Part shown: one piece after another, positions 19,410 to 53,192 of the stretch
How the letters are laid out: every line of letters begins with the position of its first letter
Position numbering within the stretch: position 1 is the first letter of the stretch
Origin: a virus
Reading direction: 5' to 3' (one strand)
IMG/VR virus record: IMGVR_UViG_3300045988_066337
DNA: 53,192 bases
Translations under genes and position numbers: made by a program
Notes under the pieces: generated by a model
Told to the model about the DNA's origin: nothing
The model's input: only the letters and a program-made list of their open reading frames with translations
The model's database searches: none

Positions 19410-20306
19410 CTAAAATACGGTGGTGTTCGGGTCATTTAATAATTTTTCTAAATAAGCTTTTCTATCTTCTTCTGTTTTATGTGTTCCACCTTCCCAATAA
19501 ATACTTGGGTCTTTTTTACAATTACCATTATCCTTGCGCAACCAATCTGGATTTACATTCGTGTATCCCATATCTAAAGATAGCTGTACAGCATTTAATT
19601 GAGTCTTTTTATCTACCTTTGCTAATTTAGCTAAAATAGCCTTTACTTTGTCATCTGTAACTAGTCTATTATCTTCTAAAAGATTCCTGAAGAATCTACT
19701 TAAAAGTTCTATAACTTCATCTTCTAAATCATATTCTAAACATTTCTTTTCTATAGATTCAATTTTAGTATCTATTTTAGACTTCTTCTTAGAATTTTTC
19801 TTTATATTATCTTTAGTATTTTGTTTTAAGTTATTATTTATATTATTATTAGTGTAAGGATTCCTTAGATCTTGTTGTAAGGATTCCTTAGATCTTGTTG
19901 TAGGGTTTTCTAATGTCTTGTTGTAAGGATTCCTTAGATCTTGTTGTAAGGATTCCTTAGATCTTGTTGTAAGGATTTTTTCACTACTTAGGACTGAAAA
20001 TATATTATTTTCATTTATCTTATAATATGTTTTTGACGGCATTCCTTTTAATTCAGTTTCAATTATGCCTAATTCTTTTAATTTTTTTATGGCCGTTCTT
20101 TGCTCTGTTTCTGTTAGCCCTGTATTATATTTTATTTTTTCACGGGTGCAAAAAAACATTTCATTATCAAGTTGACCCTTAGTTAAATAAAAATTATATT
20201 CTGAACATAAATACCCAAGTAATATAGCTGGATTTGTTCCGATTGTTCGGGCTAATTTTTTGTTATAAATTATAAAACCATCTGTACTCAATAAATCTGT
20301 TATCAT
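19410..20306 (-). CDS. Replication initiator / replisome organiser (N-terminal wHTH) containing the iteron array
   Basis: wHTH N-terminus; internal protein repeat TTRSKESLQQDLRNPY x2 encoded by the 23-bp tandem repeats; sits upstream of the loader and helicase. Confidence 0.55.
   Translation of the reverse strand: MITDLLSTDGFIIYNKKLARTIGTNPAILLGYLCSEYNFYLTKGQLDNEMFFCTREKIKYNTGLTETEQRTAIKKLKELGIIETELKGMPSKTYYKINENNIFSVLSSEKILTTRSKESLQQDLRNPYNKTLENPTTRSKESLQQDLRNPYTNNNINNNLKQNTKDNIKKNSKKKSKIDTKIESIEKKCLEYDLEDEVIELLSRFFRNLLEDNRLVTDDKVKAILAKLAKVDKKTQLNAVQLSLDMGYTNVNPDWLRKDNGNCKKDPSIYWEGGTHKTEEDRKAYLEKLLNDPNTTVF
19855..19977. repeat. Iteron array: five 23-bp tandem repeats plus a partial sixth (TAAGGATTCCTTAGATCTTGTTG; third copy degenerate); putative phage origin
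   Basis: Copies at 19855, 19878, 19901 (degenerate), 19924 and 19947, partial copy at 19970. Each holds the palindromes AAGGATTCCTT and AGATCT. Confidence 0.8.
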
Positions 20307-20307
20307 A

Positions 20308-20625
20308 TTATTCTCCTTTCTGAATAACTGCTTTATAAGCGCATCCAGTTAAATAACCATTTTCGTCATAGTCTTTTCTTTTTGTTATCAATTCTTTATT
20401 AACTAAATTATTTATTGTAGATATAACGCTCTGTCGGGAACACCCGCACCACTCAGAAAAATACTTATGTTGTGTGGTAAACCAACATTTTCCAGCGTTC
20501 GACCTATCAAATATCAAAGCATATATTAAAAGTTCATTCCCCTTTAAATCTAGTTCTTCACGCATCCACTTAGATATTATTATGAATGTCTCTTCTTTTT
20601 TAATATTAACATTTTCCATTTTCAT
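20308..20625 (-). CDS. Winged-helix protein of the replication module, hypothetical
   Basis: LLIYALIFDRS...CSRQSVISTINNLVNKELI HTH; GAAAGGAGAATGAAAATG start. Confidence 0.55.
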   Translation of the reverse strand: MKMENVNIKKEETFIIISKWMREELDLKGNELLIYALIFDRSNAGKCWFTTQHKYFSEWCGCSRQSVISTINNLVNKELITKRKDYDENGYLTGCAYKAVIQKGE

Positions 20626-21451: not shown

Positions 21452-21859
21452 CTATTTAATTTTAGATACTCTAAGTGTTGTCACTTCTTTACCAACAACT
21501 TTACAGCTTTCTAATTTAGTTATATCGAAGTCACCATTGTATACAAGAGTTTCTAAAGCATCGTCATCAATATACTCTCGAGTCTTAACAACGGACTTGA
21601 AATCTGTTTCTGATAGATTTTCTTTTAGTATTCCAATTGCTTTAGCTTCATTTAAAATTTCCTTTTGAGTTGTCGAAATAATAGCTGTCCACTTATCAGA
21701 TGAAAACTTACGAATACCCATAGTATTCATGAGATATTTTATGTGCTTGTTAAGATCTTCACTTACTTTGTGAAGTTTACTCTCGCTATCTTTATACTCT
21801 TTGTACTGATCTAATTTAAACGCTAACTCCTGTTCTTTTGTTTTTCCTCCCCTACTCAT
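21452..21859 (-). CDS. Hypothetical protein
   Basis: ORF 21452-21874; the ATG at 21859 (MSRGGK...) follows GAGAGGGA and overlaps the upstream stop. Confidence 0.55.
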   Translation of the reverse strand: MSRGGKTKEQELAFKLDQYKEYKDSESKLHKVSEDLNKHIKYLMNTMGIRKFSSDKWTAIISTTQKEILNEAKAIGILKENLSETDFKSVVKTREYIDDDALETLVYNGDFDITKLESCKVVGKEVTTLRVSKIK

Positions 21860-22169
21860 CACTATCCCTCTCATTCTTTTTAGCTTCTAGCCGCTTCGTA
21901 CCATAAGCCCCCCACTGCCAGTAAGCATTGAACTCCGCCATGCAGCCTTTATACTTGCCTTGCAAGTCTTCATGAAACTGCTGTAGTTTGGCAATGTCTT
22001 TTTGTTCAAATAACATCGTCTTTCTATTATCCGTGGTATATTCAGGCAATTTCAATTCTGGGGGTTTTTCGTAATCTGGATTCTCATACCATTTATACCA
22101 TCGTTTAATAGTTGTTGTTGATAAATCTAATATCTGTGCAACTTTGGACACACTGAATTTCTCCATCAA
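21852..22169 (-). CDS. HTH DNA-binding protein (MerR/excisionase-like)
   Basis: FSVSKVAQILDLSTTTIKRWYKWY; AAAGGAGGAATTTG-ATG; first gene after the promoter at 22200-22228. Confidence 0.6.
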   Translation of the reverse strand: MMEKFSVSKVAQILDLSTTTIKRWYKWYENPDYEKPPELKLPEYTTDNRKTMLFEQKDIAKLQQFHEDLQGKYKGCMAEFNAYWQWGAYGTKRLEAKKNERDSDE

Positions 22170-26979: not shown

Positions 26980-27180
26980 TTATAATACTTTAATGATCTT
27001 TTTATTAACTTTCTGACTCAATTTACGTGTGTAATCAATTGATATGTTGAAAGTATCTGCAATTTCTTGTAAAGTGTGCCCACGTGCTCTATGTTCAAAC
27101 ACAATAGACTCCAACTCACTGAAATTACACTTTTCACGGAATGTGTCTAACTCAGGTTCCGTGAAATCTTGTATAATCAT
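26980..27180 (-). CDS. Sigma-70 region-4 / LuxR-type HTH-only protein (candidate late transcription regulator)
   Basis: LESIVFEHRARGHTLQEIADTFNISIDYTRKLSQKVNKKI. Confidence 0.55.
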   Translation of the reverse strand: MIIQDFTEPELDTFREKCNFSELESIVFEHRARGHTLQEIADTFNISIDYTRKLSQKVNKKIIKVL

Positions 27181-32917: not shown

Positions 32918-33403
32918 TTAAGCTGATGCTGCTGTAAATGTTGGAGCACCACTTTCAATGGTATACGTGCCTTTTTCAATTTCCCCACCAAGTTTAATTG
33001 TGAAAGAAATTTTACCCTCTACGGTATCAAGAGTGTCTAAAAGCAATGTGCAAATTCCTCTCCAAGCCTTCTTACCTGTGCCTCCAAAACACATCAAGAA
33101 CGGTACTTTAACATCGTCTCCAGTCGGCATGTCGTAGAATTTTTTAAAAATGAAATCGTACATTTCATTGCCCTCATAAAGAGCAATCTCCTCAGGCAAT
33201 TCCGGCTGATTACTAGATACCTCTTCCACAGCGTTCGGGTAGCAAATATATTCCATAGACTCAGACTGAGGATTCATGGCAAAAGCAAAGATTGTGGATA
33301 AATCAATTCGCTTCCAAGTATTAGCAGCAAATGTATTATCTTCAGCAGTATCTAAAAATGGAATAAATTTATCTCTGGTTAATTTAGTTAATGCAGACAT
33401 CAT
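32918..33403 (-). CDS. Major tail protein
   Basis: 161 aa; strong RBS; canonical position upstream of the chaperones and TMP. Confidence 0.6.
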   Translation of the reverse strand: MMSALTKLTRDKFIPFLDTAEDNTFAANTWKRIDLSTIFAFAMNPQSESMEYICYPNAVEEVSSNQPELPEEIALYEGNEMYDFIFKKFYDMPTGDDVKVPFLMCFGGTGKKAWRGICTLLLDTLDTVEGKISFTIKLGGEIEKGTYTIESGAPTFTAASA

Positions 33404-35187: not shown

Positions 35188-36312
35188 TTATTCCTTTGAT
35201 GTTACTGTAGCTTTACCAACTTTCAGAACTTCTTTCTTAGCATTGATTTCTACAATGATAATAGGCTGACCTGTGGTAGCTGTAATTTCTGCACTGCCAT
35301 CCCAGTCCTTAAATACTTCTGCATCTACCACTTCACCAAGTGCCGGCGCTTCTACGTCTGCACCTGTTGCATATTTATAGCTATTTCCAGATCCTTTTGG
35401 CTCTGTCACTGTGATCTTAGTCTTTCCAGAAGTAGTTGCGCTTGCGGCGGATGTTACAGTCAGTGTAGCATTTGGTGCATAGTACAGGATAGTCTCTGGT
35501 GTAACTGCTTTAGTACCATAATAGAAAAACAGCTCCATAGCATATGCTTCTGAGAGAGGTACTTTTTCTGCACTGTATGGTTTACTCATAATAGGCTGTG
35601 CAATGGATCCTTTCATCATTACAATGAAATCTACACCCTTTGGCAATCTAGTGCAGGATTCTGTCTGTACACCGTGAAATGCGAGGAAAGATTCTGCGTT
35701 AGTTTCAACATTAGCATTATTCACGCCTGTATCAAGATATTTTCTGATTTCTGAGTAAGCTTCCGCACTAAATATACCCACCATCATGCTTCTGTCAATA
35801 CCATCAATGTACTCATTTTCCAGAGTTTCCAGTGTTACAATGGCAGCTTCATACTTATCTGCCATAGTTGTAATACCTGAAGCTGGAGTAAATGCGGTAC
35901 CGGCTGCAACTGCTTCCTTAAAGAAAGCTCTATCGAGATGAGCCTGCATTCTTATTGTATGGTTAGCAGCTCTTTTTGCTATAAGACCATCCACTCCTAA
36001 AAGAGATGCATCTTTCTGTTCCAGCTCTTCGACAAATTCCTTGTCCTTGTTTATAGCAATAGTAACGGGCTTACCTGTTACAGAAGCACCCTTTCCAGCA
36101 GTTCTAGCTGAACCGTAATCCTTAGGTTCTGCGTTCTGGAATCTTTTAGCTTCTACTGTACCCGATGTAGGATCTCCTGAAAGATCGGTATTTTTAAGTG
36201 TGCTGGAAAGTGTTCCTTTCTGCACGTTTTCGATAACTCCATCATATGTTTCTGACAGGAGCATTTTACCTTCATTCTCTAAAAGAACGGATAAAGATTC
36301 AATTCTAGGCAT
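35188..36312 (-). CDS. Major capsid protein with a C-terminal Ig-like extension
   Basis: 374 aa after the scaffold gene; beta-rich C-terminal ~90 aa (LTVTSAASATTSGKTKITVTEPKG...). Confidence 0.75.
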   Translation of the reverse strand: MPRIESLSVLLENEGKMLLSETYDGVIENVQKGTLSSTLKNTDLSGDPTSGTVEAKRFQNAEPKDYGSARTAGKGASVTGKPVTIAINKDKEFVEELEQKDASLLGVDGLIAKRAANHTIRMQAHLDRAFFKEAVAAGTAFTPASGITTMADKYEAAIVTLETLENEYIDGIDRSMMVGIFSAEAYSEIRKYLDTGVNNANVETNAESFLAFHGVQTESCTRLPKGVDFIVMMKGSIAQPIMSKPYSAEKVPLSEAYAMELFFYYGTKAVTPETILYYAPNATLTVTSAASATTSGKTKITVTEPKGSGNSYKYATGADVEAPALGEVVDAEVFKDWDGSAEITATTGQPIIIVEINAKKEVLKVGKATVTSKE

Positions 36313-36325
36313 TTTCTAATCCTTT

Positions 36326-36952
36326 CTACCAGATAAGAGGCCGTTCTTTGGGCTCTTTTTTAACATCTGGATCATCAATTTTCTTATTCTTGTCAACAAA
36401 TTTAGGTTTTGGCTTATTAGGTTCAGGATCGTCTGGTTCCTCTTTTATAAAAGCACCTGCATCCTGTTCCTTGTACTTGTCCACGAAATCTTTAAATCCA
36501 AGTATCTCATTATCTTTCATGGACAATCTATTGTCCATAAGATCATTTATAAATGCTTTCTTAGCACTATTGGAGCTAAATTTAAGATCACTTGACAGTT
36601 CCTTGATAGCAAATTCATAACGCTGATCAGCTAATTGTTTGCTGTATTTTTTCTGCTGTTCATCATAGTCTGACTGAAGATTCTGTAACTTTGTAGTAAC
36701 TTCATCAATTTTAGCTTTATCATTCCCAACATCCTCTAGCTGTTTGTTTAAATCTGCTAAATCTTTGTCTCTCTGTTGTAAATCAGCTTCTAATTTCTTA
36801 TTGCCCGCCTCAGCATTTGTAACTTTGACCTGAATATTTTCGACTTCTTTGATAGTCTTATAGTTGGCGACCATTTCTTTTTCAAAAGATTCCTTTTTAT
36901 CTTCTGGAATCTCCAACCCAATAGATTTTAAAATTTCGTAGATATTTTTCAT
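36326..36952 (-). CDS. Scaffolding protein (Phage GP20-like)
   Basis: MKNIYEILKSIGLEIPEDKKESFEKE N-terminus; coiled coil; charged C-terminus. Confidence 0.7.
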   Translation of the reverse strand: MKNIYEILKSIGLEIPEDKKESFEKEMVANYKTIKEVENIQVKVTNAEAGNKKLEADLQQRDKDLADLNKQLEDVGNDKAKIDEVTTKLQNLQSDYDEQQKKYSKQLADQRYEFAIKELSSDLKFSSNSAKKAFINDLMDNRLSMKDNEILGFKDFVDKYKEQDAGAFIKEEPDDPEPNKPKPKFVDKNKKIDDPDVKKEPKERPLIW

Positions 36953-37025
36953 TAAAACCTCCTAAAATATCTTATATACCGTATTTTCTACGGTCTGGAA
37001 ATCTTCTTATATATTTATTATATAT

Positions 37026-37139
37026 AAGTTATCCACAGATTACAAGTATTTTTTTGTGGATAAGTCTGTGGATAACTTCGTAAAAATTTGTAAATATAAA
37101 AAGTTATCCACAACCTGTGGATAAGTCTGTGGATAACTT
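37026..37139. promoter_or_regulatory. Cluster of six perfect DnaA boxes (TTATCCACA) in two repeat units, flanked by pure-AT tracts
   Basis: TTATCCACA at 37029-37037 and 37104-37112. TGTGGATAA at 37055-37063, 37067-37075, 37116-37124 and 37128-37136. A 24-bp perfect direct repeat at 37055-37078 recurs at 37116-37139. Confidence 0.85.
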
Positions 37140-38274
37140 ATATTTTTACTTGTTTTGGTTTGATTTGTCGACCCTTATAATTAGGGACATATGCATTATC
37201 AAATCTAGGCTTAACCCCGGACTTATTTGCAATACGCCGGTAGGATGATTCTAAAATGTTCAATCGTTCTTTTTCCTTACCTATATCTTGATTTGCGGAT
37301 TTTAACCCAATTATTTTTTCTTTTTCATACCTCATTCGAGTTTCTAGTCTTCTCATTACTTGGGTGCATTCGTATCTTGTATATTTTTTACCATTCACCT
37401 CAATCATTTCCCGAGAATAATCTTTCATTTCCTGTAATTCTTGTGCAGAATATGGATTAGGAGATACGCCTAGAACAATGTATGAAATATTATGTTGGCA
37501 ATTCATTGTACCTATCGGTCTTTTTAATTCGGATTGGATTTTGTTGAATTTTTTCAATGAATATTGTCTGCCTTGATAAGGTAGATGATCTTCTGCACAT
37601 AATCCATGTGCATCAATTTGTACACCGTCTGCTCCGAATTGTTTACCTGCTTCTTCTCTAATACCGGAATTCAGTCTTCTAATCCCTTCTATTAAATTTA
37701 ATTTCAAAGCACTGTCTAATCTTCTGGTTAATCCGCTGGCATACACAACACGCAAACCGTTTGAAACCGTTTTATTTATTATACGACGTGTGGCAGATTC
37801 ATAATCGGTCATCCCCATTGTAACCTCTTGAATCATACTGTCAACTGCATTTCTATAATCTTGGGAAATAGCTGTTGTGTGAGAAATATTTCTAAATGTG
37901 TTACCTGTAGCTATAGCCATTGATTTCATATAGTTGTTTATAATGGTATTTTCAACAAAAGTGGGTTGAATTATATTTTTAGCTAAATAGTATTTAGCCA
38001 TGTCTGAATACTCCATCATACCACTTTTTTTAAATATCATTTGAATTTCTAACACAGATTTATCTGTGGCTCGTGCAAGCATACTGTTTATCTCATCAAT
38101 GTTAGCCTGCATCTTAGCCATCTCGTCTAATCTATGTAGATCTGTAGAAGTCAATGCCCCTATATCTGAAATATGTTTCGCCATCAATTCAATATAACGA
38201 ACATTGACCTCTTCAAATCTATTAGCAACTATAGTAGAAATCTGTTCTATCTGCTTAGCAACTGTATTAGACAT
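37138..38274 (-). CDS. Minor head protein (MuF / SPP1 gp7 family), no C-terminal toxin domain
   Basis: 378 aa directly after the portal gene (ATGA coupling); gp7-like core. Confidence 0.7.
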   Translation of the reverse strand: MSNTVAKQIEQISTIVANRFEEVNVRYIELMAKHISDIGALTSTDLHRLDEMAKMQANIDEINSMLARATDKSVLEIQMIFKKSGMMEYSDMAKYYLAKNIIQPTFVENTIINNYMKSMAIATGNTFRNISHTTAISQDYRNAVDSMIQEVTMGMTDYESATRRIINKTVSNGLRVVYASGLTRRLDSALKLNLIEGIRRLNSGIREEAGKQFGADGVQIDAHGLCAEDHLPYQGRQYSLKKFNKIQSELKRPIGTMNCQHNISYIVLGVSPNPYSAQELQEMKDYSREMIEVNGKKYTRYECTQVMRRLETRMRYEKEKIIGLKSANQDIGKEKERLNILESSYRRIANKSGVKPRFDNAYVPNYKGRQIKPKQVKI

Positions 38275-39815: not shown

Positions 39816-40586
39816 CTAAATTCTTTTAGTATAAGGAAGATATATCCACCCAGCACCACTTTTTAATTTACCCCACTTGCCTATTGTTTCCACTATAGTG
39901 TACACTCCGGGCTTGATGAAGCCTTTTTTTCCGTATCCTGTACCAGGACCTTTTCTAATATACAAGTCTTCTATAGATACTTTTACTTTGAATCCTCCTG
40001 TAGTTGCTGCAGATCCAGACGCACCTGTTTCATAGCCTTTATCTGCAATTCCAAGCGTTTTCAAAATACCTTTGGCATATGCGTATCCGAACGCTCGTTG
40101 CTCACTGGTAGTATCTGCGATCTGAACGTCTGTTGCATTATCAACGAAGACACCTTCGCAGATAACCGCTGGCGCATTTGTTAATCTAATCATACCATAA
40201 TAGTCTGTGCCATCTGTATCTCTGCGCGTTTTCAGCCCACGTGAGTTCTGACCTATTTTCTTAACTTCTGCTTCGATATTCTGTGCCAGAGTTTTTCCTC
40301 TGCCCCCACCGACGGTGTGATAGACTTCAAATCCATCGCCGCCTCCGGCATTGTTGTGTATCGAAATAACCAGATCGGCACCCCAGCTATTCGCTTCGCG
40401 CGCCATGCTGTTGATACCTGTGTCTGTACTGTTTGATGTTCGTGACATCTTTGTGATTACACCATTTGCATTCAGATAGTCCCTGCAGGCTAATGCCATG
40501 ACCAGATTCACGTCACGCTCAACGATGTATTTGACTGCGCCCGGATCGCTTCCGCCGTGACCAGGGTCTATATATACTTTTGCCAT
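39816..40586 (-). CDS. Endolysin: N-acetylmuramoyl-L-alanine amidase (Amidase_3) plus a C-terminal SH3-like domain
   Basis: MAKVYIDPGHGGSDPGAV; ISIHNNAGGG; C-terminal GYGKKGFIKPGVYTIVE...WGKLKSGAGWI. Confidence 0.85.
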   Translation of the reverse strand: MAKVYIDPGHGGSDPGAVKYIVERDVNLVMALACRDYLNANGVITKMSRTSNSTDTGINSMAREANSWGADLVISIHNNAGGGDGFEVYHTVGGGRGKTLAQNIEAEVKKIGQNSRGLKTRRDTDGTDYYGMIRLTNAPAVICEGVFVDNATDVQIADTTSEQRAFGYAYAKGILKTLGIADKGYETGASGSAATTGGFKVKVSIEDLYIRKGPGTGYGKKGFIKPGVYTIVETIGKWGKLKSGAGWIYLPYTKRI

Positions 40587-40587
40587 G

Positions 40588-40896
40588 TTACGCCTCCTCT
40601 ACGCAGATCGCCGTAATGCCATATGCCTTTGCTGCATCGTGTTCAAGCTTACATCCTCTTGCATCACGCCAACCTTTAGCAAAGTATGCGATGTCAGCAT
40701 CCGAAAGCAGCTCAAGTGACTTCCCTAAAAACCACAGAGGTTTTGCGTCCGCCGGTGCACCTTGAAAAAATGAATCAATTACCTCCACAGGCTCCCCAAG
40801 ACACCTTTGCGCACTATCAATCGCCTGTTCTCTTTCACGAAGTATTTCCTCATCGCTTTTGCCCTTCATGGGCTGTGATATAAAAAGTTTCTTCAT
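40588..40896 (-). CDS. Nucleoside 2-deoxyribosyltransferase-fold (DUF4406-like) protein
   Basis: Real start is the internal ATG at 40896 (GGAGGAAAAATAATG, TAATG overlap with the holin stop). MKKLFISQPMKGKSDEEI...AKGWRDARGCKLEHDAAKAYG fits the pattern I recall for DUF4406. Confidence 0.45.
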   Translation of the reverse strand: MKKLFISQPMKGKSDEEILREREQAIDSAQRCLGEPVEVIDSFFQGAPADAKPLWFLGKSLELLSDADIAYFAKGWRDARGCKLEHDAAKAYGITAICVEEA

Positions 40897-41102
40897 TATT
40901 TTTCCTCCACTTCCGGCAGCCCTGCCACCGATGTTAAAATAGACAGCAACCCTGCCATCACCGTCGCGGATCCCACCATAACCCAATTTGTTTCTGTAAT
41001 CATTGTGGATGCTCCAATCGTAGCGATGGCTGCCTGCGCCATTGTCTTTACAGCTCTTATACCTGCTGCTTTCCACCATTCTTTACTCTTAAGTGTTTTC
41101 AT
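40896..41102 (-). CDS. Holin (phiLC3 / LL-H-like)
   Basis: 68 aa; WWKAAGIRAVKTMAQAAIATIG and a second TM SATVMAGLLSILTSVAGLPE; charged C-terminus. Confidence 0.7.
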   Translation of the reverse strand: MKTLKSKEWWKAAGIRAVKTMAQAAIATIGASTMITETNWVMVGSATVMAGLLSILTSVAGLPEVEEK

Positions 41103-41395
41103 TTAATCACCGTATCCTTTCGTGTATACTCATAATAAATCTCGTCACCATTTCCTGGTAATATTACCGTCCCGGCTTTGAATATCTTTCCTGCGACTTC
41201 GACATCTTTGTGCAGCTGTACTACATTATTTATACTGTTAATGCTGATAGTCGCGCTGCCATCGTCATTTACGTATATCGTATACCCTACAGCAACGGCA
41301 GGTTTCGGCGTAGTCATAAACAGAAACGCCGCTGCAGCTATGACTAGCATTGCAACAACACATATCGCAATCACTAGCCTTTTATGCTTTGACAT
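41099..41395 (-). CDS. Membrane-anchored protein, hypothetical
   Basis: N-terminal TM LVIAICVVAMLVIAAAAFLF. Confidence 0.55.
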   Translation of the reverse strand: MSKHKRLVIAICVVAMLVIAAAAFLFMTTPKPAVAVGYTIYVNDDGSATISINSINNVVQLHKDVEVAGKIFKAGTVILPGNGDEIYYEYTRKDTVIK

Positions 41396-45934: not shown

Positions 45935-46732
45935 TTAGAACAAACTCCTTTCTATTATATCCTCGCCTCTAAGATCTTCCATCCAATTTTGTGGGATACT
46001 GTCAATTCCATATATTAATGCTGCACAAGCTCCAGTTAATGCTGCTATTGTATCCGTGTCCCCTCCTAGTTTAACTGCCTGCATTACAGCTAATTTATAA
46101 GAGTTGGTATGATATAAACACCACAACACACTATTCAACGTATCTACTACATAACCAGTAGATTTAATATTATCTACATGTTGATTCACTATATGTGAAC
46201 CATAATCATAAATTATGTTTTTTGCGTTATCAGGCCTTGCGCATAAGTCACGAACCATGCGTAAATATCGTTTACAAGCATAAATACATAATGGATGTGC
46301 ATGAGTTATACTAGAAATTGTTCCTGTATGGAACAAGCCATTTCGTATAAACGCTAATGGCAGTATTCTCATTAAGGACCCATTACCACAGCTATGCTCT
46401 GAACGTAGTCCGGCTCCTTTTTTTAGTGCTTGTAATGTTGTTGTACCAACATCAAACACTCTATTATTAATATAATATTTACCTTCTATGCAGTCTTTCA
46501 AATTGTTTAACACAGACTTGCGTCTGATTTTTCCGCCATCCTTTCTAATAGCATCACATGTGGCTAGCAATAAGGCAGTGTCATCCGACCATGTTCCTTT
46601 TGGTTGTGCCCATATGCCACCATCCGTCATATCCTCCTCTACATACACGCCTCTGTGGCAAAATTCATAAGGAACACCAAATGCGTCCCCCACTGCAAAA
46701 CCATAAACAGCTGTTTTTAATTTATCATTCAT
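45935..46732 (-). CDS. ADP-ribosylglycohydrolase (ARH/DraG family)
   Basis: VYGFAVGDAFGVPYEF, GTWSDDTALLLAT, GNGSLMRILP, LGGDTDTIAALTGA; AAAGAGG RBS favours the ATG at 46732. Confidence 0.8.
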   Translation of the reverse strand: MNDKLKTAVYGFAVGDAFGVPYEFCHRGVYVEEDMTDGGIWAQPKGTWSDDTALLLATCDAIRKDGGKIRRKSVLNNLKDCIEGKYYINNRVFDVGTTTLQALKKGAGLRSEHSCGNGSLMRILPLAFIRNGLFHTGTISSITHAHPLCIYACKRYLRMVRDLCARPDNAKNIIYDYGSHIVNQHVDNIKSTGYVVDTLNSVLWCLYHTNSYKLAVMQAVKLGGDTDTIAALTGACAALIYGIDSIPQNWMEDLRGEDIIERSLF

Positions 46733-46952
46733 ATAAGTACCTCTTTCCAACAGCACATTCCTCTTCAAACTCTGCGATCCTTTTCTCTTCCATCGCTGCG
46801 CGTCCAATCTCCACGATCATCTTCTTAGCACCAGCTTCTCCCAGCTTGTCTTTTGATATCACATAAATGTTCATCAGGATCAATGCGGTATCCGATAGGA
46901 TCTCAGCCAGATCGCCGGCTATTTTTGTGTCCCCGTTTTCTGTTTTAATCAT
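46725..46952 (-). CDS. Hypothetical protein
   Basis: GGAGGAG RBS before the ATG at 46952 (MIKTENGD...); GC-richer island. Confidence 0.5.
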   Translation of the reverse strand: MIKTENGDTKIAGDLAEILSDTALILMNIYVISKDKLGEAGAKKMIVEIGRAAMEEKRIAEFEEECAVGKRYLYE

Positions 46953-49704: not shown

Positions 49705-50742
49705 CTACGCCTCCTCCTTATGTGCACAAAAGATTAATAAGGATGACTGAATAATCGTCTTAGGATCAGGATCCCACTTGATTCTGTAATCTAGTTCCAT
49801 TAAAAACTCTAACAGCTTGGGAATATTTTCACAATACGTGTTTCTTATATAATCCAAATGTTCGACATTTTTGTCTGTTTTAGGAATATTGATATAATCG
49901 AAATTTACAAGTAACATGTATGCCTGCACATCAAGAATAAATTTATAATAATCTCGTATAAATTGTTTAAGATCCTTACCTGAATTATAGACATTATTTA
50001 CAAATGTAAACACTCCAGAACTGTTCTTTTCCATTATAAAATACGTCAATTCAAACATAGATGCATAATCTTCCGCACCAATTATCTCAAGAACATTTTC
50101 CATGGTTATATCAGAGGTAATAGACATACACTTGTCAAGCAATGTGATAGCATCCCTCATACCTCCAGAACATACTTTTGCAATATACACAATAGCATCC
50201 GCTTCCACGTGAGCATCGGGCATCTCATGTGCTATAATAGTATTTAATCTATGTAGAATACCATTTGTACTTATCTTAGTAAACGTGTATCTCTGAACAC
50301 GAGACAAGATTGTAGCAGGTATCTTTTGTGGGTCTGTTGTACATAAAATAAAAATAGCAGTTTTAGGAGGTTCTTCTAACAATTTTAATAATGCCTGCCA
50401 CGCCCCAGAACTTAATGAATGACACTCATCAATTATAAATATTTTATAATCTCCGTCAATAGGCTTTCGTTTAGCATCTTCAATTATGGTACGAATATTA
50501 TCCACACCACTATTAGATGCTGCATCTATTTCAATGGGATTTCCTACGCCTTTATTTATCATTCCTGCAAAGATTCGAGCAGACGTTGTCTTACCTGTTC
50601 CTGCCGGGCCTGTGAATAAATATCCATGTTGAAATTCTCCAGTTTTAACCTGATTTTCTAAAATTTGTTTGATTATTTTTTGTTCCGTTAGATCGTCAAA
50701 TGTTTTGGGTCTATATTTGACTGCTAAAGATTGTTTTGCCAT
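49705..50742 (-). CDS. dnaX: DNA polymerase III gamma/tau-like clamp-loader ATPase
   Basis: KYRPKTFDDL, FTGPAGTGKTT, IFIIDECH, LLKLLEEPP, SRVQRYTF; start at the ATG at 50742 (MAKQSLAV...). Confidence 0.85.
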   Translation of the reverse strand: MAKQSLAVKYRPKTFDDLTEQKIIKQILENQVKTGEFQHGYLFTGPAGTGKTTSARIFAGMINKGVGNPIEIDAASNSGVDNIRTIIEDAKRKPIDGDYKIFIIDECHSLSSGAWQALLKLLEEPPKTAIFILCTTDPQKIPATILSRVQRYTFTKISTNGILHRLNTIIAHEMPDAHVEADAIVYIAKVCSGGMRDAITLLDKCMSITSDITMENVLEIIGAEDYASMFELTYFIMEKNSSGVFTFVNNVYNSGKDLKQFIRDYYKFILDVQAYMLLVNFDYINIPKTDKNVEHLDYIRNTYCENIPKLLEFLMELDYRIKWDPDPKTIIQSSLLIFCAHKEEA

Positions 50743-52296: not shown

Positions 52297-52828
52297 CTGT
52301 TATATCCTCACAATCTTTTATTGCAGATTTTATTATCCAACCTGTCCATTTTATATTCTGTATTTTAGTTTTAACCTCTTCTAAATGTTCTCGGAGTTCA
52401 TCTTCTGTATCAAAAGGATTTATATAAGCGTGTTGTCCACATTCTGGGCCTAACCCATATAATCTAGATACAGGATTAGTAAGAGGTTTACCACATTTCA
52501 TGCAGATATCTGTTTTTTCTATATCCCCAAAACATTCCGCATATATCATACCTCGTGTCTGTTTAATAACTTTAGCTGTCATTCGGACAAATGGCATCGG
52601 TATATCATTATTCCATTTGTACATGAAATCAAAATCTCTATTGGACTTTTGTGTCATGTATTTTTTAACTGTTATCCTATACAATTTATTATTTTCAAAC
52701 TTGCTGGATACAGATTCTTGTTTAACCGAATTGTCCGATTTATTTGAATTGAGGGTGAACGTGAATTGTTCACCCTGTATGAACTCCATGTCTTCAAATC
52801 TGTGTATTTTACTGAATATGCTTTTCAT
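52289..52828 (-). CDS. Protein with a C-terminal DUF6011-type zinc ribbon
   Basis: CMKCGKPLTNPVSRLYGLGPECGQH. Confidence 0.5.
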   Translation of the reverse strand: MKSIFSKIHRFEDMEFIQGEQFTFTLNSNKSDNSVKQESVSSKFENNKLYRITVKKYMTQKSNRDFDFMYKWNNDIPMPFVRMTAKVIKQTRGMIYAECFGDIEKTDICMKCGKPLTNPVSRLYGLGPECGQHAYINPFDTEDELREHLEEVKTKIQNIKWTGWIIKSAIKDCEDITDE

Positions 52829-53102
52829 TTTCAGTTATCCTTTCGACTTGATTTTGTGTAAAAAATGCAGAATCCTTTAAAAAATATCTGCCATTATCTA
52901 TAATTTCTGTGGTCCCGTCTTCCTTTTCCACCTCAACCTTTTTACTGGATTTTTTCCATATAGATATCTTATGTTGGGATTTTTCTCCATGTTTAACCTT
53001 GAATCCTAAATTTTTCCACTGACTATAAGTATGTAACACTACTAAATCGGGATCTAAACCATGTAGATTCATATATGTAAGTATAATTTCATTATTAGTC
53101 AC
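52809..53102 (-). CDS. ArdC-N-like ssDNA-binding domain protein
   Basis: HTYSQWKNLGFKVKHGEKSQHKISIW resembles the ArdC N-terminal motif. AGGAGG-8 nt-GTG favours a start at 53102 (ORF track gives 53111); the start lies inside the terminal repeat. Confidence 0.4.
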   Translation of the reverse strand: MTNNEIILTYMNLHGLDPDLVVLHTYSQWKNLGFKVKHGEKSQHKISIWKKSSKKVEVEKEDGTTEIIDNGRYFLKDSAFFTQNQVERITENEKHIQ

Positions 53103-53192
53103 GTGAAACACCTCCTATCATTTTTTCTTTAACTTGTGTATATATTATAACTTATTGTAACACATAAATCAAGAGTTTTACAAAAAAAAAAG
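53094..53192. repeat. Second copy of the 99-bp terminal repeat (contains the promoter copy at 53144-53172)
   Basis: Identical to 1-99. Confidence 0.95.

Follow-up and report, generated by a model that had tools for sequence, protein, structure and literature searches.

Here we describe a cluster of six perfect DnaA boxes in the late structural gene block of a tailed phage, IMG/VR record IMGVR_UViG_3300045988_066337, of which a stretch of 53,192 nucleotides (the window) was analysed. The cluster occupies a 185-bp gap between the gene for a MuF-like minor head protein and the gene for the head scaffolding protein; it is real and conserved, probably functional, and best described as a DnaA-box-laden terminator-promoter module controlling the capsid operon. 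From the comparison with related phages we propose, at about even confidence, that host DnaA gates transcription of the capsid operon through boxes in this terminator-promoter junction, one pair of which doubles as the terminator stem. The phage probably employs this replication protein of its host as a timer of capsid production, not as an initiator.

The window is a tailed-phage genome with a guanine-plus-cytosine (GC) content of 35% and nearly all genes on the minus strand. Exact matching located the 9-mer TTATCCACA, which agrees with the DnaA-box consensus (TTATCCACA / TTWTNCACA), six times within 108 bp. In the order of the sense (minus) strand these are box A (37128-37136, minus strand), box B (37116-37124, minus), box C (37104-37112, plus), box D (37067-37075, minus), box E (37055-37063, minus) and box F (37029-37037, plus). 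Boxes A and B form a tandem pair with a 3-bp spacer and thus a 12-bp period, box C is inverted relative to both with a 3-nt gap to B, and boxes D and E again stand in tandem. A preliminary description of this DNA, made by reading the letters, had given the same six positions, and the exact repetition that it reported of the 24-mer TGTGGATAAGTCTGTGGATAACTT at 37055-37078 and 37116-37139 was reproduced. It had also estimated that less than one copy of the 9-mer would occur by chance in 53 kb and called for a genome-wide count; the expectation is 0.88, the count is 8, and 8 was reached in 0 of 100 shuffles. The single further copy that it listed, at 50498-50506 (plus), is one of two, the second lying at 33293-33301 (minus); both are solitary and intragenic, as are all further TTWTNCACA-type sites in the 53 kb. 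AT-rich spacers of 25-28 bp flank both box units. They had been called pure A/T, which holds for nearly all of their letters; there is a G at 37090, and C/G occur at the ends of 37006-37028.

For a second scoring, a matrix independent of the phage data was derived from 150 boxes that Bacillus subtilis DnaA bound in vitro (PMC4447404 Table S3), and sites were counted from 9.5 bits upwards. This matrix finds 6 sites in the 185-bp gap, where shuffled versions contain 0.08 on average and never more than 2, and only 2 sites in the remaining 4.56 kb of intergenic DNA of the window. The cluster is therefore real and no by-product of the AT-rich spacer.

Read on the sense strand, the gap holds a terminator hairpin with a U-tract, two tandem boxes, a promoter with a box in its spacer, a hairpin in the 5' untranslated region (UTR), a ribosome-binding site and the ATG start codon. 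The MuF-like gene (37138-38274, minus strand) was taken from the open reading frame (ORF) list and matches the PHROG 581 minor head protein with an E-value of 1.7e-37, and its homologues carry PF06152. It stops where the preliminary description had placed its end, and the TAA codon (37138-37140) overlaps the flank of box A. The intrinsic terminator (37092-37139, minus strand) reads AAGTTATCCACA-GAC-TTATCCACA-GGT-TGTGGATAACTT and then TTTATATTT, which can form either a 12-bp stem, AAGUUAUCCACA/UGUGGAUAACUU, or an inner 9-bp stem with a GGU loop, followed by UUUAUAUUU. In the fold, box A supplies the outer 5' arm and box C the 3' arm. A terminator scan returned a match at 37124-37104 with CTTTTTATAT as U-tract, downstream of the MuF stop codon; the sense-strand RNA folds at -17 kcal/mol and the region has a z-score of -7. 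The preliminary description had noticed a hairpin of terminator shape with a 3-nt loop and had called it promoter-proximal. Its shape was recognised correctly, but since the genes are on the minus strand the hairpin adjoins the MuF stop and not the promoter. Because the arms change together among relatives and a U-tract always follows, the first inverted box pair, judged from these comparisons, clearly doubles as an RNA terminator stem.

The second tandem pair, AAGTTATCCACA-GAC-TTATCCACA (boxes D and E), follows after 25 AT-rich bases. A promoter scan matched 37045-37017 with 10 of 12 positions and a 17-nt spacer, giving a -35 hexamer TTGTAA (37040-37045, minus strand), which is invariant in close relatives, and a -10 hexamer TATAAT (37017-37022, minus strand), with a transcription start inferred near 37010. 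The arrangement TTGTAA-N17-TATAAT is a predicted near-consensus promoter for the housekeeping sigma factor (sigma-70/A). Relative to the inferred start, boxes D and E are centred at about -61 and -49, the latter ending 9 nt upstream of the -35 hexamer. Box F, present as TGTGGATAA on the sense strand, lies inside the promoter spacer, 2 nt past the -35 and 6 nt before the -10 hexamer, and is centred at -23. The ribosome-binding site AGGAGG (36958-36963) and the scaffold ATG (36950-36952), both on the minus strand, are evident in the sequence and belong to a conserved ATTTTAGGAGG block. The scaffolding protein gene itself (36326-36952, minus strand) matches PHROG 194 with an E-value of 1e-20 and PF06810 in relatives, and the major capsid gene (35188-36312, minus strand) is next after it. 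The best explanation for this arrangement would be a terminator-promoter junction that separates the terminase/portal/MuF unit from the scaffold-capsid unit.

Homologous junctions were gathered by look-ups of MuF homologues and by a profile scan of viral contigs. The relatives are contigs of 50-57 kb, and those traceable to a sample come from human gut metagenomes. Conservation among related phages had been named in the preliminary description as a check on the cluster, and it was found: about 26 lineages of this gut-metagenome phage family, with MuF proteins 42-98% identical, keep the order of hairpin and U-tract, more boxes, -35/N17/-10 and UTR hairpin. Close relatives (93-98%) retain all elements, differing in box number by a 12-bp step and in a terminator loop that switches between ACC and GGT. 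The promoter is the most constant part, with TTGTAA, TTGTAT or TTTACA, exactly 17 nt and TATAAT in 30 distinct sequences; the 17-nt spacer and TATAAT are invariant throughout the family, box-less lineages included. The boxes hold a fixed register to it, one being centred at -23 or -24 in 24 of the 26 lineages and one at -12 in 20 of them, always in one orientation, with further boxes at -43 to -70 and beyond. The distance between like-oriented neighbours is 11 bp in 42 cases and 12 bp in 27, close to a full turn of the helix, and some relatives carry arrays of 12-13 sites. An extra gene or an ordinary terminator has been inserted after MuF in two lineages (L138 and L170), yet the array stays beside the promoter. 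Boxes overlap or adjoin the core promoter in a conserved register, as would be expected of a DnaA-regulated promoter.

The terminator hairpin and U-tract are kept in all box-bearing lineages, with stems of 12-13 bp and -12 to -18 kcal/mol in nine of them. Its arms compensate (CC/GG, CA/UG and UC/GA across lineages), and lineages L136 and L137 differ from each other in both arms. More distant homologues, at most 41% identical, have no boxes and carry ordinary terminators instead. Searching GenBank phages for near-identity with the 2.3-kb region returned nothing, so that no close relative was found there, and a tblastn search of the same phages with the portal protein yielded only relatives of at most 34% identity, mostly Clostridia phages.

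Within the family the boxes take the forms TTATCAACA, TTATACACA, TTATTCACA and TTATTAACA, with changes at positions 5 and 6 only; TTATCAACA and TTATACACA are found in most lineages, TTATTAACA in two and TTATCCACA in the window phage. Among 204 sites, which were chosen with the same B. subtilis matrix, positions 5-6 read CA (82), CC (55), AC (47), TC (10), TA (8) or GC (2), while the other positions are held. The top words of an unbiased 9-mer count, TGTTGATAA, TGTGTATAA and TGTGGATAA, are the same leading variants as among the matrix-chosen sites. The B. subtilis matrix leaves position 5 free and has C in 100 and A in 45 boxes at position 6 (A in 30% of bound sites), with positions 4 and 7-9 nearly fixed (PMC4447404). 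Of 29 junctions scored, 24 contain 5-13 matrix sites each, where the flanking 4 kb would predict 0-0.5 (p between 1e-7 and 1e-21), and two more contain 3-4. The favoured 5' flank is AAG, found at 100 of the 204 sites.

The exact 24-mer TGTGGATAAGTCTGTGGATAACTT also recurs in 119 or more IMG/VR viral contigs, representing at least about 75 distinct loci, of 30-66% GC and from many environments, and T5-like, Lactococcus 949-group, Streptomyces and Microbacterium phages match the double box as well. Occurrence in phages of so wide a GC range points to a binder common to all hosts, and DnaA, which all hosts share, would be the simplest candidate. When all ORFs of the phage were searched, no DnaA-type DNA-binding domain (Bac_DnaA_C-type) was found in any of them. 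Among the IMG/VR matches listed, the 24-mer sites of loci L005-L123, going by a rough ORF call, appear to lie for the most part between genes, and they often belong to larger box arrays. In Lactococcus phage 949 (L261; NC_015263 12957-14016) a lone pair, TGTGGATAActcTGTGGATAA, stands in the middle of a non-coding gap of about 1 kb between convergent gene blocks, with nothing annotated. Other known Firmicute operators, namely the Spo0A, Fur and LexA boxes, were compared with the repeat and do not fit it.

Left unblocked, a near-consensus promoter for the main sigma factor of the host would be active as soon as the phage DNA is injected. In the mechanism that we propose, host DnaA would occupy the predicted sites that flank and fill the RNA polymerase contact region, and would hold the scaffold-capsid promoter off early in infection, when much DnaA is free and the phage genome is present in few copies. 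The promoter would be released once phage replication multiplies the sites or once the status of host DnaA changes, which would couple capsid synthesis to replication. DnaA at the terminator boxes may in addition harden the stop against read-through. Occlusion by a cooperative DnaA oligomer is favoured because the sites fill the spacer, overlap the -10 hexamer in most relatives and flank the -35 hexamer on one helical face. Control may alternatively have the opposite sign, the upstream boxes at about -49 and -61 being at classical activator positions. A DnaA sensor that gates late transcription was among the roles suggested in the preliminary description, and it is the one that the comparative data favour, with 26 lineages holding a fixed register to -35/N17/-10; the binding itself is a prediction. 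A more specific form, in which host DnaA would act as a replication-coupled timer that represses a strong constitutive capsid promoter on the incoming genome and is titrated off as the phage replisome multiplies the six-box cluster, with capsids made only after genome copies have accumulated, is offered tentatively, as a possibility to which we give a rather low probability.

Known DnaA-controlled promoters include those of dnaA, rpoH and nrdAB in Escherichia coli and of dnaA, sda and ywlC in B. subtilis. The phage junction is like such bacterial promoters in having boxes of (here predicted) high affinity beside or inside a housekeeping-sigma core promoter, close enough to each other to allow cooperative binding (PMC4447404, PMC2533591). 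It differs from them in that the target is the capsid operon of a lytic-type phage and not a host gene, and in that the boxes also form the preceding terminator. A phage-borne likeness is the 'injection stop' of T5, where 3-bp-spaced pairs also lie in inverted repeats, the variants TTATCAACA and TTATTAACA recur and a replication role was judged unlikely (bioRxiv 10.1101/866236). The T5 boxes, however, are placed at a constant 52-bp spacing in the terminal repeat, which is non-coding, and their proposed function is to halt the injection of DNA at the membrane (bioRxiv 10.1101/866236), whereas the cluster of the window is in mid-genome between head genes, has spacers of 3 and 17 bp and is in register with a promoter and a terminator. 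With regard to termination, DnaA bound in the transcribed path can block RNA polymerase, as in the DnaA-dependent termination at guaB and in the asnC/mioC region of E. coli. Here an intrinsic hairpin and U-tract are already present, so DnaA would at most reinforce the stop.

Several observations weigh against gating by DnaA. Some lineages (L139-L143 and L183) have no boxes and retain the promoter and the UTR hairpin, and in L165 TGTATATACA repeats stand in place of boxes; the array is therefore an exchangeable and dispensable accessory, and the specificity of the upstream region can be swapped, as expected of phage-encoded regulators. Small helix-turn-helix ORFs of unassigned function lie at 26980-27180, 21852-22169 and 20308-20625. 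In unrelated phages the same box pair usually has iterons as neighbours and thus belongs to origins; in five of the matches listed (L019, L034, L035, L047 and L122) it lies inside O-like/DnaD-like initiator genes. Finally, the phage probably replaces some guanines by a 7-deazaguanine, and if those of TGTGGATAA are among them, DnaA contacts could be weakened or altered. As to the loci concerned, the MuF-scaffold gap of L165 (IMG/VR 3300014039_000007, about 2620-2990) contains palindromic TTGTATATACAA repeats together with the promoter and UTR hairpin, and in L019, for one, iteron-like repeats directly follow the 24-mer. The DNA-modification cluster of the window phage (8529-12515) encodes GTP cyclohydrolase I, a radical-SAM QueE-like protein, a QueD-like PTPS, QueC, a cytidine/dCMP-type deaminase and a DpdA-like transglycosylase.

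Some of these observations would fit repeats that are operators of a phage-encoded or other host regulator acting at the capsid promoter, with the DnaA consensus coincidental in this lineage, an explanation that we consider unlikely. The drift of the motif within the family, its full replacement in L165, the existence of box-less relatives and the uncharacterised helix-turn-helix ORFs all speak for such a regulator, as does the common use of phage activators on upstream repeats at late promoters of Firmicute phages, for example Alt of TP901-1. The drift is, however, limited to the two positions that DnaA tolerates, positions 1-4 and 7-9 being held; all six sites of the cluster are perfect consensus sites with the AAG flank; and the identical 24-mer recurs in unrelated phages across the whole GC range. 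Moreover, a single promoter has the motif, which is not found at the remaining late gene blocks, and good -35 and -10 hexamers should need no activator. A DnaA sink was the remaining role listed in the preliminary description. We regard it as quite unlikely that the cluster is chiefly a sink or modulator, comparable to datA, the DnaA-box clusters of B. subtilis or the DnaA-reactivating sequences (DARS), which would titrate or recharge host DnaA and so disturb initiation, its position at the promoter being secondary. To our knowledge the DARS core and datA are restricted to Gammaproteobacteria, and we know of no DARS or datA equivalent described for Clostridia, which counts against this explanation. 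Six sites of predicted top affinity per genome, multiplied by the phage copy number, would suit a sink, as would the longest arrays of the relatives, and such a role is compatible with promoter control and could coexist with it. Like the E. coli DARS core, the cluster has strong boxes outside an origin, and each of its units, A-B-C and D-E-F, repeats the topology of two boxes in one direction and one opposed, with boxes I and II opposed and II and III alike (PMC6868365). The gaps between the opposed boxes are nevertheless 3 bp (B-C) and 17 bp (E-F), compared with 5 bp between I and II in DARS1 (PMC6868365). A sink also needs no fixed register to -35 and -10, yet this register is the most conserved feature, and the box-less relatives are evidently viable.

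A second DnaA-dependent origin, which the preliminary description had listed as a possible role, is very unlikely, whether as an oriC-like unwinding module or with the hairpin box as a DnaA-dependent primosome assembly site on displaced single strands. In favour of it, the tandem pairs A-B and D-E, with their 3-bp spacers, correspond to the box element (boxes at most 3 bp apart) of the bacterial basal unwinding system, and with the flanking AT-rich spacers they resemble oriC and origins with auxiliary boxes (P1 oriR and lambda-type). DnaA boxes at phage origins appear to be common, and the pair within initiator genes beside iterons in unrelated phages is a further point for an origin. The inverted boxes would, besides, make a stem containing a DnaA box, like the R6K 'A site' that Masai and Arai are said to have described in 1995. 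The basal unwinding system, however, combines tandem DnaA boxes with at least three DnaA-trios (3'-GAT-5') within about 10-13 bp (PMC8287927). With the orientation taken from E. coli oriC, no convincing consensus trios appear to follow the pair of the cluster; there is only a relaxed middle-A run over the -35 region, which is at chance level in AT-rich DNA. The phage also has a complete lambda-type origin of its own, an iteron origin that the preliminary description had already noted: five to six 23-bp iterons, TGTAAGGATTCCTTAGATCTTGT, at 19853-19990, preceded by an AT tract and placed inside an O-like initiator gene (19410-20306; origin 19830-20001), about 17 kb from the box cluster. That origin contains no DnaA boxes, and the phage encodes the O-like initiator, a DnaB-type helicase, a primase, a family-A polymerase, a sliding clamp and a clamp loader. 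An origin context is missing at the cluster, which has head genes and no iterons or replication genes as neighbours, and the GC skew along the window is uniformly negative, with no switch; neither skew nor composition gives an origin signal. The boxes, moreover, are in register with the promoter hexamers and absent from some relatives that keep the promoter.

The least probable explanation, in our judgement, is that no protein reads the boxes, the gap holding a terminator and a promoter only, in which a palindromic unit was duplicated locally to give the repeats. The two units are indeed exact duplicates of one 24-mer, close relatives differ by 12-bp steps in box number and by the ACC/GGT loop flip, and the covariation of the hairpin arms is what RNA structure by itself would demand. 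Against this, conservation extends to boxes outside the stem, among them the spacer box at -23, and a stem constraint leaves unexplained both the retention of TTAT..ACA in 200 sites and matrix matches with p down to 1e-21.

Beyond the boxes, the junction contains a hairpin in the 5' UTR of the scaffold mRNA, ACCGUA-GAAAA-UACGGU (36978-36994, minus strand; columns 24-40 of alignment A3), about 16 nt past the inferred start. Across the family it has 6 bp and a GAAAR pentaloop, lies between conserved AATCC and ATTTTAG blocks and is present even in box-less lineages. In alignment A3, 99% of the cells are paired and 5 of the 6 pairs change on both sides, giving a covariation of 0.99, compared with 0.27 in shuffles and reached by 0 of 500. 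Rfam gave no match to it, only sub-threshold hairpin-like ones. Possible functions of the hairpin are stabilisation of the mRNA, processing or the binding of a protein.

The structural genes of the window comprise those for terminase, portal, MuF-like protein, scaffold, capsid and tail. The endolysin is 88% identical to a sequence of Brotomerdimonas butyrica and 77% identical to one of Lentihominibacter hominis, and the host is therefore probably a member of the gut Clostridia, of a family that we take to be Anaerovoracaceae. The endolysin (amidase) gene and a nucleoside 2-deoxyribosyltransferase-like gene lie at 39816-41395, between terminase and portal, an unusual site for lysis genes, and GC is 0.46 at 40-42 kb compared with 0.35 overall, which together suggest an acquired segment. 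Possible host-interaction genes at 312-917, 45935-46807 and 52809-53111 encode a papain-fold glutamine deamidase toxin-like domain, an ADP-ribosylglycohydrolase and an ArdC N-terminal-like anti-restriction domain.

DnaA-regulated promoters and phage-borne DnaA-box clusters are known kinds of element; new here are such boxes at a phage capsid promoter and terminator, and the searchable literature yielded no earlier case of DnaA boxes at a structural-gene or late promoter of a phage. In lytic phages without an RNA polymerase of their own, the means of delaying the structural genes are often unknown, especially in uncultured phages of gut Clostridia. A capsid promoter buried in DnaA sites of predicted top affinity suggests that a simple switch, with no regulator of the phage's own, would link late transcription to replication or to the status of host DnaA. 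The idea may also help to account for the so far unexplained pairs of DnaA boxes in T5-like and many other phages. If host DnaA does act as a replication-coupled timer, the double box in unrelated phages would point to a wide use of DnaA by phages to read the state of the cell and of replication, beyond its role at origins.

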